A DNA stretch of 12,775 nt, taken from NCBI GenBank assembly GCA_027001995.1, contig JALTLO010000020.1:14009-26783 (forward strand), written 5' to 3'. Made by a program: the position numbers and the translations under genes. This DNA is from Planctomycetota bacterium (GTDB lineage Bacteria > Planctomycetota > GCA-002687715 > DRQF01). Positions 8,296-12,775 of this stretch are shown here, one piece after another. Under the pieces are notes generated by a model. It was given only the letters and a program-made list of their open reading frames with translations, made no database searches and was not told the origin of the DNA. Position 1 is the stretch's first letter, and each line of letters begins with the position of its first letter.

Positions 8296-8631
8296 TTATT
8301 CGCCTTCAGCGCCGAATTCTTCATCCTCTGGCATGAGTTCCAAAGCAAAAACCAAGATGGGAATATTGACTTGGACTGGAACTAAGAGGGGAGCCACGGG
8401 GCCAATGCGTTCCGAATCTGTGCCGCGAAGGCGAGGGCGATCTAGAACCTTCTGCATGACCAGGGCCTTAAACTCGTTGAAGCTGACGCCAAATTCGATG
8501 CACAAACGATAGATGTCGTTGGCCAACGTTTTGGCAATCTCCGGGAACCCTGGGTCGCCGGCGTTCAAGCCCTTGAATTCTGGGCTGAATGCTTGGTTAA
8601 GAATCGCTAAATAGGTCTGCTCTTTTCTCAT
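8296..8631 (-). CDS. Hypothetical protein, 111 aa, acidic C-terminal tail
   Basis: ATG start preceded by purine-rich GAAAGTGAGAA, protein-like composition, and a strong terminator about 40 nt downstream. No family recognised. Confidence 0.7.
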   Translation of the reverse strand: MRKEQTYLAILNQAFSPEFKGLNAGDPGFPEIAKTLANDIYRLCIEFGVSFNEFKALVMQKVLDRPRLRGTDSERIGPVAPLLVPVQVNIPILVFALELMPEDEEFGAEGE

Positions 8632-8897: not shown

Positions 8898-9021
8898 AAT
8901 CTTGGGAGGGGGTATCCTCGACAGGATTCTTTTTCTGGGGGCTCGTATTTCAGTGCTGATCGGGTAGATATCCACACGGCTCTGTTTTGTTCTGACTTAG
9001 TTCTTCCGAGTGAGTTTGTCC

Positions 9022-11400
9022 ATGAAGCACATAAGTGGCTTGTTTCTTTTCTTCCTCATGGCTGGAGTCCTCCAGGCCCAGGGAGGTTCTTCTCAAGTGA
9101 AGATCTCCCAAGTTGTTTTTGAACCCAACGAGATTGCTGCGGGTGGTACGGCGGAAATGGTGGTGACAGTGCGTGTCAGCCCAGGTTGGCATATCTACAC
9201 CATTGAAGAGCACTCGGGCCAGGAGCCTACGGGGTTTCGTGTGACCACCGATGGGGCGTCGATCAAAGGGCCAGTGAAAGAGCCTCAACCTCACAAGAAA
9301 ATGCAATCCTGGGGTGACACCAATTACTGGCATGAAGGTGAAGCAGTTTTTCGTATTCCCGTGTCTTTCGACCAAAAGTTGAAGGGGCAAGTCAATGTCC
9401 GGGGTGTGATGGATTTCATGGCTTGCAATGCGAAAGCCTGTCTGCCTCCTGATTCTTTGAAATTCTCTGGGGCCATACAGATTGGCTCTAAGGGAAGAGG
9501 GGCGTCAAACGGAGGGGGCATCAGTGGGGCAGCCGGTCGTCAGCTTCTCGGCAAGATGAACGAAATCCTGGAGCTCAATAAGAAACAAGGGGAGAAGATT
9601 CTCGACTTGGAAGAGGCCATCAATGAGCTCAAACCGAAACCCCCAGAGTTGCCACCCGAGCCTCCTTCATGGAGCTTGTCAGATGTCAGTGTCGAAATGC
9701 AGAGCAACAAGGTTCGTGCCAGCAAACGCATTGGCGGTACGATTCGTTTTTCAACTCCTGAGAACGTGAAACTCGAGGCAGCCTCTGAGATCTTCATTGA
9801 CGAATCAACAGGGTCGAAAAAGGTCGAAGGTATTGATGTCGTGGCACTCAGAACTGATGGGACTGGTAAGCAACATGAGGTCGATTTCGAATTGATAGCT
9901 TCAGCGCTGGCGAAAAGTGGAGTTGAAAACCTTGAGCTCTCGATTGTCGTGCCCATGGATATCGAAGGGGTCGCTTTTGAAAAAGAAGCCGTCGCCCTTC
10001 CCATCGAAATTGAGTTTGGTTTGCCCAGTGTTTGGACATGGGTGCTGAAGGCGGCAATCGCGGCGCTCTTGGCACTCCTAACACCTTGCGTGTTTCCTAT
10101 GATCCCGGTGACGATGTCATTCTTTACCAAGCAGGCTGAGAAAGAGCACAAGAACCCACTCCTGTTGCCAACTGTCTACGTCATCGGCATTGTCACGAGC
10201 TTTGTTGGCATCGGCGTTGGCTTTACTATGCTGTCGAAAGTGTCAGCCAGTTTGAGCCCACAGTTCTTGGCCACAAATGGCTGGCTCCAAGGTTTCTTTG
10301 GTCTCCTCTTTGTCTTGTTTTCTTTGTCCCTGTTCGGCATGTTCGAACTGCGTCCTCCTGCGTTCTTGATGAACAAAGCCAGCGGCGTGCAAGGAAAGGG
10401 CGGCATTGGCGGAACTTTGGGAATGGGGCTTCTGTTCTCGCTCACAAGTTTCACTTGCACGGCACCTTTGGTTGGGGCCATTTTGGTGGATGCTGCGGCC
10501 AGCGAAGAATGGCTGTTTCCCATCGTCGGCATGTTTACCTTTTCGCTGATCTTAGCGACGCCGTTTTTCTTCTTGGCGCTCTTCCCTAAGATGATGAAAA
10601 GCATGCCCAAGAGTGGCGGATGGTTGAACTCCGTGAAAGTGACGCTTGGTTTCCTTGAGCTGGCCTTTGCTCTCAAGTTCATCGGAGCTATGGACGCTTA
10701 CTTTGGTCTGGGAATCTTCACCCGTACCGCCATCCTTTGGATGTGGGTTGTCATTTTTATCATGAATGGCCTCTATCTCCTGGGTGTGGTTCGCTTCAAG
10801 GACGATGGCAAACTTGACCGTGTCGGTGGGATAGGGGGCACCATTGCGGTGTGCTTCCTCGCCTTGGGACTCTACTCGATGAATGGCGCTCAAGGTGCGC
10901 AAATGCCTTCCCTTCTGGAAAGCTTGATGCCGCCGAGCCTTGAGGAGTCGACAGGCACAGGGATGCTGGGATGGCCGAACCACATCAGTGATGACCCGGA
11001 AACAGCTTTCGCTCGGGCCCGTGAATTGGGAGTTCCAGTATTTGTTGATTTTACCGGTTATACGTGACCAAATTGCCGCGAAATTGAGACCCGTGTGTTC
11101 TCAAAGCAAAAAGGTAAATCTCGGCTGGTGATGGATAAAATGGTGGTGCTTTCCCTTCATACAGATGGTAAAGGGAATCGTCGAAATGAGTTTGCCGCCT
11201 GGCGTGACAAACTGACTGGTACGTCTTCGAACCCGGTCTATGTGGTGATGGATCCCTTCGAAAAGGACAAAGTTCTTTTTGACACGGACTACAATGTGGC
11301 TAAGGATGACGAACTCTTCGCTGCGAAGTTGGGGAAGGCTAATCGCCGTTTCTTAAGGGCACTTAAGGGACGGGGTCTGAAAGCAGAAGTGAAGAAGTGA
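9022..11400 (+). CDS. dsbD: Thiol:disulfide interchange protein, DsbD family, predicted selenoprotein (TGA 11065-11067 = Sec, UxxC motif), about 792 aa
   Basis: Signal peptide MKHISGLFLFFLMAGVLQA. DsbD-alpha-like domain (PGWHIY; CNAKAC, Cys at 9424 and 9439). DsbD-beta TM domain (LLTPCVFPMIP, Cys at 10087; SFTCTAP, Cys at 10456; MPKSGGWLNSVK). The thioredoxin domain PVFVDFTGYT-[TGA]-PNCREIETRVF...VVLSLHTD continues in the same frame to TGA 11398-11400. Confidence 0.88.
11084..11104 (+). promoter_or_regulatory. Putative bacterial SECIS element
   Basis: Hairpin TTGAGA (11084-11089) / TCTCAA (11099-11104) enclosing CCCGTGTGT, with an extra C-G pair possible using a bulged U. The stem begins 16 nt after the in-frame UGA, a typical position for bacterial SECIS. 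Confidence 0.6.
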
Positions 11401-11885
11401 GTAGTTTTATTCGTTTTTCGGGTTGGGCCGCCAATGTTTTGTTGGCGGCCCTGCTCATAGATGGAATCTATCCTTGGATCGGTGGTCTAGGCTTGCACAT
11501 CCGATGGGGGCTTGGGGTGTGTTTGTTTCTGCCGCTTATCTATCTTCTACCCTACTTTCACCTGATTGGCGTTGGTGCTCGCCTTAAGGCCAGAATCGAA
11601 AAGGGAGGGGAAGACGTGGCTCAGGCTTTTCAATTGGCCCTGCGGCTGAAGGCTCGGCTGTTCTTTCCCGCTTTATTGGCGGTGATCTTGTGCATCACTG
11701 GCCCGATTCTTGGATTCTTCCAGATGGGGGGGCGAATACCCCCCATGGTCCATGGAATCTTCATGACGGTGTTTATCGTGGTGCACGTCGTCACTTGGGC
11801 CCGTTCTTTGTTCATTCTTGGATTGGCAAGGGAACTGAATTCTTTTAACACCAACCCGGATGTTGGCGCTGGACCGAAGTTATGA
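11397..11885 (+). CDS. Hypothetical integral membrane protein (about 4 TM helices), 162 aa
   Basis: The GTG start overlaps the dsbD stop (GTGA, 11397-11400). Four hydrophobic segments, with His residues in or near the helices (GLHI, YFHL, MVHG, VVHV). Confidence 0.75.
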   Translation: MSSFIRFSGWAANVLLAALLIDGIYPWIGGLGLHIRWGLGVCLFLPLIYLLPYFHLIGVGARLKARIEKGGEDVAQAFQLALRLKARLFFPALLAVILCITGPILGFFQMGGRIPPMVHGIFMTVFIVVHVVTWARSLFILGLARELNSFNTNPDVGAGPKL

Positions 11886-11957: not shown

Positions 11958-12590
11958 ATGGCACAAGAAAACCATAGAACAACTCAACAGTTAGTTCTGC
12001 GAATTCATGGTGGGGACAAAGAGGCTTTTGACCTTTTGTTCATGCGCTACTACCCCCGTATTAAATTGGCGGTTCGGCTTCAGATGCTGGACAAACTGAA
12101 AGCGCAGGTCGAACCTGAAGATGTCATTCAAGAGATCTATATCGAGGTGTACAAGAACTTTCACAAGTTCGAATACTCTGATCCTGATTCTTTCTTCAAG
12201 TGGGTGACGAAGGTTGTTGGCTGGAAGATCAAGGACTTTGATAAGTACTTCTTCAAGACCGCGAAGCGCCAGCCCCACGAGCTGTCACTGCAGCAGTCGC
12301 TAGCTGAAGCGGACACGTCGACCTTCGAGATTTGTGACAACGTCGCAGCTCAACAAAGCACCCCGAGTCAGATCGTTATGGAAAAGGAAGGTTTTCAGAT
12401 GCTCGAAAAAGCACTTGAGAAGCTCCCTGAAAAATTTCGGCGGGTGATTACCTATCGTCAAGTGATGAAAATGAGCGCGGCGGAAACAGCTTCGCAGATG
12501 GATATGCAGGCTAATGCTGTGAACGTGCTTTTTCATCGGGCACAGCAAAAACTGCATAAAGTCCTTCGCGAGATGGCTTATTTCGGATGA
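11958..12590 (+). CDS. ECF (group 4) sigma-70 factor, resembling planctomycete kinase-associated ECFs
   Basis: Region 2: GDKEAFDLLFMRY...VEPEDVIQE...FFKWVTKV. Linker with STPSQ. Region 4: ALEKLPEKFRRVI...SAAETASQM...AVNVLFHRAQQKL. Confidence 0.92.
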   Translation: MAQENHRTTQQLVLRIHGGDKEAFDLLFMRYYPRIKLAVRLQMLDKLKAQVEPEDVIQEIYIEVYKNFHKFEYSDPDSFFKWVTKVVGWKIKDFDKYFFKTAKRQPHELSLQQSLAEADTSTFEICDNVAAQQSTPSQIVMEKEGFQMLEKALEKLPEKFRRVITYRQVMKMSAAETASQMDMQANAVNVLFHRAQQKLHKVLREMAYFG

Positions 12591-12775
12591 CCGACTTCTC
12601 TTCGGATGAAAACCAGTTGGCAGAGCTCATCGGCAGCATTCAAGATCGCATGAATGACGGTCAGGACGTTGATTTGGAGGTCGTCAAGAAGGAATTTCCG
12701 AAGTTTGCCCATGAGCTTGAAACCTATTTCAATTGCGGTTCCCTCTTTGAACAGGCCTTGGATGACAAGGCTCGT
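12587..12775 (+). CDS. Probable serine/threonine protein kinase, N-terminal part (truncated by window edge)
   Basis: ATGA overlap with the sigma stop. Open to the window end: MTDFSSDENQLAELIGSIQDRMNDGQDVDLEVVKKEFPKFAHELETYFNCGSLFEQALDDKAR. This resembles the helical N-terminal extension (G..xD......P..A.EL) of planctomycete kinases encoded after ECF sigmas. The kinase domain itself is not visible. Not in the ORF track. Confidence 0.6.
   Translation, partial: MTDFSSDENQLAELIGSIQDRMNDGQDVDLEVVKKEFPKFAHELETYFNCGSLFEQALDDKAR

Follow-up and report, generated by a model that had tools for sequence, protein, structure and literature searches.

A probable selenocysteine residue in the thioredoxin-like domain of a DsbD/ScsB-type electron transporter from Planctomycetota

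Background

The textbook carrier of reducing power across the bacterial inner membrane is DsbD. The E. coli protein has a signal peptide and an immunoglobulin (Ig)-like alpha domain that holds a Cys pair; two further Cys lie in the membrane (beta) domain, and a redox pair lies in the thioredoxin-like (gamma) domain at the C-terminus. All of these are shared by the product of a gene located in a 12,775 nt stretch of DNA from a Planctomycetota bacterium (assembly GCA_027001995.1, contig JALTLO010000020.1, positions 14,009 to 26,783). This whole stretch is termed the window, and positions refer to it. The first redox residue of the gamma domain is encoded in this gene by an in-frame UGA (positions 11065–11067), and it is very probably selenocysteine (Sec) where E. 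coli DsbD has Cys. The window protein differs further from E. coli DsbD in that the alpha pair is of the form C-x4-C, and in that a long helix and a Cys-free Ig-like domain are added between alpha and beta. Its score against the NCBIfam model for DsbD proper, NF001419, is 107.1 bits, which is below the 330-bit cut-off; it is therefore a superfamily relative and not an ortholog-level member of NF001419.

The available portions of PMC3322552 define the DsbD superfamily classes DsbD, ScsB and CcdA and give the order of electron flow as thioredoxin to beta to gamma to alpha. The ScsB class (PMC3322552; structure 6c29) has the same alpha-beta-gamma arrangement, eight membrane segments and a larger N-terminal region with two Ig-like domains; its members are described there from proteobacteria and Chlamydia, and with Cys only. 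ScsB-alpha and DsbD-alpha are stated in the same portions to be not alignable, whereas the first Ig-like domain of the window protein does match the Pfam family DsbD_N, and the Foldseek TMt to 6c29 is only 0.37. In the structural model discussed below, the two-Ig architecture nevertheless resembles ScsB.

The commonest change among bacterial selenoproteins is one in which Sec takes the place of the first Cys in the CxxC motif of a thioredoxin fold, and this tempers the surprise of finding it here. A list of 119 prokaryotic selenoprotein families and subfamilies, including TlpA-like, Trx7/PDZ and TsoB, is given in Table 1 of PMC13188914 (2026). TsoB (NF045694) is the best NCBIfam match of the window protein (residues 340–587), and it is likewise a selenoprotein with a DsbD-type membrane domain. 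However, TsoB combines a rhodanese domain with two Sec in a UxxxxU motif (PMC13188914, Table 1), whereas the window protein has no rhodanese match in the Pfam scan, would carry a single Sec, in the UxxC motif of its thioredoxin domain, and scores 109.1 bits against a cut-off of 805. The Trx7/PDZ (seleno)protein family (NF041199) shares a Sec in a Thioredoxin_7-type redox motif and gives a weak match at residues 655–710. It is a soluble, exported, PDZ-bearing family listed in PMC13188914 with a CxxU motif; the window protein has no PDZ match in the Pfam scan and scores 18.8 bits against a cut-off of 300. The same placement of Sec, i.e., in place of the N-terminal Cys of CxxC, is listed in Table 1 of PMC13188914 for the UxxC families Sec-thioredoxin (PF00085), 'Thiol:disulfide interchange protein' (PF13098), DsbG-like and DsbA-like. 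When compared by their descriptions in that table, these are single-domain soluble or exported proteins of other Pfam families, and none is listed as a membrane electron transporter. The closest solved structure to the gamma domain is 3f9u, the C-terminal domain of a putative exported cytochrome c biogenesis-related protein from Bacteroides fragilis, which has Cys and not Sec.

A preliminary description of this locus, made from the sequence alone, had refrained from claiming novelty ahead of a search. That caution was apt, and the comparison now made is as follows. No three-domain DsbD or CcdA with a UxxC gamma domain is among the 119 entries of Table 1 in PMC13188914, the representatives being compared by description, and 'DsbD' appears once in the available text of that paper, for TsoB. 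Table S9 of PMC4807772, on a planctomycete genome, has 13 candidate selenoprotein entries and no DsbD. No paper on Sec-DsbD was found in open-licence full text, a scope that leaves aside the primary catalogues behind PMC13188914. The window protein passes no model of NCBIfam release 20, the nearest being TsoB, DsbD and Trx7/PDZ.

Results and Discussion

The reading frame

The open reading frame (ORF) at 9010..11067 on the forward strand is 685 aa from a GTG codon, or 681 codons from the ATG at 9022, and ends with ...VFVDFTGYT TGA. Past this TGA the same frame reads CCA AAT TGC CGC (P-N-C-R-E-I-E-T-R-V-F) and remains open to the next stop, a TGA at 11398–11400, absorbing a separately called 101-aa ORF. 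Translation from ATG 9022 with TGA read as U gives 792 residues, the TGA being residue 682, with no frameshift or further stop. The preliminary description had given the same stop, open frame, absorbed ORF and residue number, and all are borne out by the sequence and its translation. None of the 8 other window ORFs checked has an in-frame TGA. The ATG at 9022 lines up with the MKHLS.../MKYLS... N-termini of relatives in the same genus and is the likely start codon, as judged from sequence. The segment 9022..11400 is one real gene.

Conservation of the TGA codon and pairing with Cys

The read-through protein was searched in 40 related genomes and in the window's own genome, which gave 30 loci. 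The codon was placed by tblastn, and codon counts come from the 25 of these loci with a gamma match (5 have none). TGA is present in the identical alignment column in 21 of the 25, i.e., the window and 20 relatives with domain identities of 30–73% that range from the same genus to another order. The other four loci (L024, L025, L026 and L030) have TGT or TGC in this column, and PDB 3f9u also places a Cys opposite U682 (DFTGYGCVNCR compared with DFTGYT-U-PNCR). The preliminary description had predicted both Cys opposite the TGA in homologues and conservation of the TGA in relatives; Cys is found at the four loci and in 3f9u, and the TGA extends beyond the genus to another order and to another phylum. 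Within the window's order the gene is present in 23 of 23 genomes examined, with TGA in 20 and Cys in three, all of one genus. These three Cys-form genomes (G009, G014 and G018, with loci L024–L026) retain SelA. Loss of the Sec trait was considered for them and rejected on this account, so that the switch between Sec and Cys is not tied to loss of the trait.

One genome of each prokaryote species was searched for the strict DNA pattern D-F-T-G-[YF]-x-TGA-x-N-C. A match was taken as true if a DsbD membrane domain lies upstream in frame and a thioredoxin domain extends 87–114 codons downstream. There are 50 matches, of which 42 are true beta+gamma DsbD genes and 8 are chance matches in unrelated frames. 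By record label, the true cases are from Planctomycetota (36), Armatimonadota (4) and 'uncultured bacterium' (2), all in metagenome-assembled genomes. Fifteen of the 42 duplicate loci already obtained, and the total is 48 distinct Sec sequences and 4 Cys sequences.

Variant forms occur among these loci. Three members of a sister clade (L089, L098 and L109) have a second in-frame TGA, about 663 codons upstream of the gamma TGA, in a Thioredoxin_7-like domain added at the N-terminus. The motif there reads LVDFNGRY-TGA-GPCRKME, and 8 other loci have Cys in this column (LVDFNGxNCxPCR). Judged by these motifs, the three would be double selenoproteins with two UxxC motifs. In L067 and L111, from Armatimonadota, the open frame before the TGA is about 390–400 codons and has no alpha-domain match, and these look like beta-gamma forms without alpha; alpha is present in L072 and L108, also from Armatimonadota. 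In genome G004 (L012/L070) the frame changes between the membrane match (query 80–627) and the TGA-bearing gamma match (query 623–789), which reflects a frameshift or else an error of assembly in that genome.

Selection downstream of the TGA and independent DNA

Purifying selection acts on the part of the gene that follows the TGA. The ratio of nonsynonymous to synonymous substitution rates (dN/dS) for the pair L009/L010 is 0.011 downstream (107 codons, dS 0.735) and 0.017 upstream. For L006/L007 it is 0.176 downstream, at a dS of 1.79 that is near saturation; the upstream part of this pair is saturated.

DNA from another study is available as contig X5, about 94% identical, which spans 10700–11450 with 47 differences in 751 nt and no gaps. 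No difference is at 11065–11067 among the 40 of 44 differences listed; 19 of those listed are at 11068–11397, 13 of them at third codon positions. The preliminary description had called for support of the TGA in raw reads; the comparison here is of contigs, and it speaks in favor of the TGA. Contig X1 is identical to the window but may be its source and is not counted as independent. Contigs X2 (11240–11450) and X3 (10732–10962) do not reach the TGA site.

Selenocysteine machinery and genetic code

The window's own genome has selA, selD with an in-frame TGA of its own, and a 98-nt tRNA-Sec(UCA) just after selD; a SelB-specific wing domain was found in a 693-aa frame of the same genome. The preliminary description had named selA, selB, selD and tRNA-Sec as worth searching for, and the genome has all four. 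In the window's order, SelA occurs in 23 of 23 genomes. On contig C148 (21981–24413) the genes are arranged head to tail as selA (21981–23075), selD (23158–24084, with one in-frame TGA) and tRNA-Sec (24316–24413), and selB is on a separate contig, C17.

TGA is otherwise an ordinary stop in this genome. Four of the 9 window ORFs checked stop at TGA, and the only tRNA with a UCA anticodon is tRNA-Sec. An alternative genetic code was rejected on these grounds.

A candidate SECIS hairpin

A candidate selenocysteine insertion sequence (SECIS) hairpin follows the UGA, and its loop begins 24 nt past it. Inside the complementary arms there is a C.U mismatch (11090/11098) and a C-G pair (11091/11097) that closes the loop CGUGU (11092–11096). 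The constraints for bacterial SECIS elements (bSECIS) in the legend to Fig. 2 of PMC13188914 are a loop of 3–9 nt, a stem of 4–16 bp, a G in the first two loop positions, a UGA-to-loop distance of 16–37 nt and a minimum free energy of -7.5 kcal/mol or lower. The window hairpin has a 5-nt loop with G second, a stem of 6 bp plus the mismatch plus 1 bp, and a spacing of 24 nt, all of which are within these constraints. Its energy is -8.0 kcal/mol in a 57-nt context but -4.1 kcal/mol alone, short of the limit. It is the weakest hairpin of its clade. Same-clade relatives display a continuous stem of 8–9 bp at the same place (-10.8 and -11.1 kcal/mol, z -3.8 and -3.7), and the relatives' hairpins span -9.3 to -11.1 kcal/mol with z from -3.8 to -2.8 and are within all the bSECIS constraints.

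Comparison of sequences within clades shows an excess of pairing. Among the 10 sequences of the window's clade, paired cells make up 91.3%, compared with 85.6% in shuffles, and none of 500 shuffles reaches it, a statistic which, like that for the sister clade, is inflated by kinship. Pair 21–39 is GC in 5 sequences, CG in 3 and UA in 1; the changes affect the third bases of the Ile/Val and Ser codons, both of them synonymous wobble positions. In the sister clade (19 sequences, with the N-U-K-N-C motif and its relatives) the hairpin is 6 nt nearer to the UGA and has the loop GGA. There, 97.6% of cells pair compared with 77.3% in shuffles, again with none of 500 shuffles reaching the score, and compensatory changes are present at 4 of 7 pairs, some of them through amino acid replacements on both arms. 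Other clades have hairpins of their own within the same zone, 13–40 nt after the UGA. The Cys-form L024 does not form a homologous hairpin. This covariation within clades is support for the hairpin and not proof.

When synonymous codons were shuffled, the 48 Sec sequences gave a mean z of -0.87, compared with -0.58 in control segments upstream. A scan of 10950–11250 against Rfam in E-value mode matched no SECIS family; its sole matches, to two snoRNAs (E 1.2 and 9.1), are due to chance.

Weighing of the evidence

The proposal of the preliminary description, that UGA is decoded as Sec at the first position of the gamma CxxC motif, is supported by the Sec/Cys pairing, the conservation of the TGA, the selection downstream and the machinery, and Sec insertion at UGA 11065–11067 is inferred from these. 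It is held with high confidence that the gene encodes a selenoprotein of the DsbD/ScsB type with Sec in this motif. A number of observations weigh against it. The window hairpin taken alone has an energy of -4.1 kcal/mol, which is short of the bSECIS limit, and its z of -1.55 is equalled by 20 of 200 shuffles. Conserved Glu and Phe codons determine part of its inner stem, GAGA/UCUC, so that only the outer pair is clean covariation in the window's clade. A 71-nt segment of the window shows no excess of folding energy over dinucleotide shuffles (z -0.18). For the 48 nt after the UGA, the synonymous-codon shuffle gives a z of +1.73 for the window, in a control that is biased since codon usage was pooled from mostly GC-richer relatives; nothing is drawn from this shuffle. 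With regard to selection, the loosest pair (L008/L013) has a dN/dS of 0.588 downstream and 0.232 upstream, and 4 of 7 pairs are saturated at synonymous sites, although their pN of 0.25–0.35 is well under their pS of 0.80–0.93. The TGA was checked on contigs and not on raw reads, and for X5 the differences listed are 40 of 44. Finally, three genomes of the order use Cys though they retain SelA, so that Sec is not obligatory for function.

Of the other explanations, the one that merits most attention is that UGA acts mainly as a stop, giving a 681-residue alpha-beta product without a working gamma domain, with Sec read-through as a minor or conditional event in a selenium-sensing switch. This explanation is favored by the generally low efficiency of Sec insertion in bacteria, where release factor 2 competes with it, and by the weak hairpin of the window. 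Members of the DsbD family with a domain missing are also known: 'No_alpha' forms and separate alpha proteins are described in the available portions of PMC3322552, and two Armatimonadota members seem to lack alpha. Yet the short product would end after the first strand of the thioredoxin fold, without either gamma redox residue, and the 110 downstream codons are under in-frame purifying selection. The order retains the TGA in 20 of its 23 genomes, which implies that the full-length product matters, and a mainly terminating UGA is very unlikely.

A nonsense mutation in a decaying pseudogene, the ORF that follows being due to chance, would account for the gene callers splitting the gene and for public records of close relatives that end at the TGA. 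It is extremely improbable in view of the same TGA in the loci of 20 relatives and in 42 species genomes from two phyla, a downstream dN/dS as low as 0.011, and a gene in which all other catalytic Cys are invariant and no frameshifts or extra stops occur. The preliminary description had named relaxed selection past the TGA, in a family where all relatives have Cys, as the mark of such a mutation; what was found instead is purifying selection and TGA in 20 relatives. Scarcely any weight can be given either to the TGA being a sequencing or assembly error for TGC or TGT, or to a code in which UGA is Trp or Gly. The source assembly consists of 204 contigs at 92% completeness, and contigs rather than reads were compared, which leaves some room for an error. 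However, the independent contig X5 does not differ at this codon among the differences listed, and TGA recurs in many independent assemblies. A reassigned code is opposed by the use of TGA as a terminator in the window and its absence in frame from the other 8 ORFs, by the sole UCA tRNA being tRNA-Sec, and by homologues that carry Cys here and not Trp or Gly.

Protein domains, redox residues and modeled fold

The protein is a DsbD/ScsB-type alpha-beta-gamma transporter, an assignment based on its Pfam domains, its fold matches and its invariant redox positions; the features are collected in Table 1. PF11412 (DsbD_N) matches residues 38–146 with 35.5 bits (cut-off 25), PF02683 (DsbD_TM) residues 339–554 with 94.9 bits (cut-off 27.1) and PF13899 (Thioredoxin_7) residues 658–745 with 33.9 bits (cut-off 27). 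The membrane domain also matches the CcdA structure 5vkv in a phmmer search of the PDB. Six redox positions (C135, C140, C356, C479, U/C682 and C685) are invariant in an alignment of 36 sequences. The statement of the preliminary description that the other catalytic Cys are intact thus holds for C135, C140, C356 and C479.

Table 1. Features of the probable Sec-DsbD gene in the window, in order of position
Feature	Positions	Strand	Basis
Complete read-through gene, DsbD-type	9022..11400, including stop TGA 11398–11400	+	Translation with TGA=U; three Pfam domains
Predicted signal peptide, about residues 1–20, MKHISGLFLFFLMAGVLQAQ	9022..9081	+	Sequence; modeled helix 2–19, then a low-confidence stretch
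Alpha domain, Ig-like, residues ~26–154	9097..9483	+	PF11412 DsbD_N; Foldseek
Alpha redox pair C135 / C140 (CNAKAC, C-x4-C)	9424–9426 / 9439–9441	+	
Long linker helix between the two Ig-like domains, residues 171–203	9532..9630	+	AlphaFold2; low confidence at ~157–176
Second all-beta Ig-like domain, Cys-free, residues ~220–332	9679..10017	+	Model strands, pLDDT mostly >85
Beta (membrane) domain, 8 predicted helices, residues ~337–623	10030..10890	+	PF02683; AlphaFold2 helices
Membrane Cys pair C356 (LTPCVFP) / C479 (SFTCTAP)	10087–10089 / 10456–10458	+	
Gamma domain, thioredoxin-like, residues ~654–783	10981..11370	+	PF13899; 3f9u by sequence and fold
Active-site motif U682-P-N-C685 (U682 proposed)	11065..11076 (TGA 11065–11067, TGC 11074–11076)	+	
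Candidate SECIS hairpin	11084..11104	+	Arms UUGAGA 11084–11089 / UCUCAA 11099–11104
101-aa ORF with GTG start, spurious; segment of the gamma domain	11095..11400	+	Wholly within the Thioredoxin_7 match and modeled fold

The AlphaFold2 model was made from the 36-sequence alignment (mean pLDDT 85, pTM 0.67). U682 is modeled between a strand (673–678) and a helix (683–693), which is the classic place of the first residue of a thioredoxin CxxC motif. In a Foldseek comparison of the whole model with the PDB, the top match is 6c29_A, the two-Ig N-terminal domain of ScsB (E 1.3e-7, with the low TMt given above), and the DsbD-alpha structures 6dnv, 1l6p and 1vrs_A are matched with a TMt of about 0.6. 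The gamma domain matches 3f9u both in sequence (E 3.9e-6) and in fold (TMt 0.74, rmsd 2.7 over 151 columns). The three-domain DsbD of the preliminary description stands insofar as alpha, beta and gamma are all found; it needs amendment in that the alpha region consists of two Ig-like domains, an architecture that is ScsB-like. Relatives from other families have two or three DsbD_N-like matches in tandem.

The cleavage site of the signal peptide would be near residue 20. In the model, the membrane domain appears to have eight segments, and both alpha and gamma would be placed outside the cytoplasm because a signal peptide is followed by an even number of membrane helices.

Proposed electron relay

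SelB and Sec-tRNA(Sec) would insert Sec at UGA 11065–11067, and the small hairpin 17–40 nt past the UGA may guide this insertion. If the protein works as E. coli DsbD does, the membrane pair C356/C479 would take electrons from cytoplasmic thioredoxin and hand them to the gamma pair U682/C685, which would alternate between selenol/thiol and selenenylsulfide. They would then pass to the alpha pair C135/C140 and on to envelope substrates, e.g., disulfide isomerases, cytochrome c maturation factors and peroxiredoxins. Sec would occupy the exposed attacking position of gamma, and the oxidized state would be a selenenylsulfide. In 1vrs, it is reportedly the first gamma Cys (C461) that is trapped in a mixed disulfide with alpha. 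Compared with a thiolate, a selenolate is superior both as a nucleophile and as a leaving group, and it is on this basis that both exchange steps of gamma are proposed to be faster. The route of the electrons, the gain in rate and the substrates are all proposals.

There are good grounds for a broader proposal, held with less confidence than Sec decoding itself. Sec-DsbD would be a distinct, uncatalogued family that serves as the standard envelope electron hub in one order of Planctomycetota, where 20 of 23 species genomes carry it, and that occurs also in Armatimonadota. Disulfide reduction in the envelope would then be selenium-dependent through an extracytoplasmic selenenylsulfide relay, and some members would have two Sec, one in an extra N-terminal thioredoxin domain and one in gamma.

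Annotation and significance

The seven closest protein-database clusters cover only 52% of the query region 560–792 and therefore end at the TGA. Two of the seven are named 'cytochrome c biogenesis protein CcdA [Planctomycetota bacterium]', and the full-length matches are Cys forms. The preliminary description had expected standard annotation to give a truncated DsbD plus a spurious small ORF, and this is what the clusters and the position of the 101-aa ORF inside gamma show. Sec-DsbD is absent from the catalogues compared, is widespread in Planctomycetota and present in Armatimonadota, and is mis-annotated as truncated. Since the gene is recorded as truncated and no NCBIfam model catches Sec-DsbD, the selenoproteomes of these two phyla are undercounted, and a family model would correct many records. 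The new points are the presence of Sec in a central membrane electron hub and the predominance of the Sec form over the Cys form across a whole order. Orthologues with Sec and with Cys within one order offer a natural comparison of selenium and sulfur in thiol-disulfide exchange, which bears on why selenocysteine serves this chemistry. A selenium requirement for redox maintenance of the envelope is implied for these lineages.

Genomic neighborhood

The neighboring genes encode an ABC-F ATPase, a fumarase, a pilin-like protein, a hybrid histidine kinase and a LOG-family protein, among which no redox link is evident. A 162-aa hydrophobic ORF (11397–11885, +) overlaps the dsbD stop (GTGA) and recurs directly downstream of dsbD in the window's family, with identities of 39–59%. 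It is followed by a gene for an ECF sigma factor of 210 aa (11958–12590, +), which adjoins dsbD in many genomes of the order and, with identities of 60–94%, is more conserved than dsbD. The ORF at 12587–12775 (+) overlaps the sigma factor gene by ATGA and may encode an anti-sigma factor. Upstream of dsbD, on the opposite strand, is a 111-aa ORF (8296–8631, -) without a Pfam match, which is found at the same place in relatives with identities of 30–65%.

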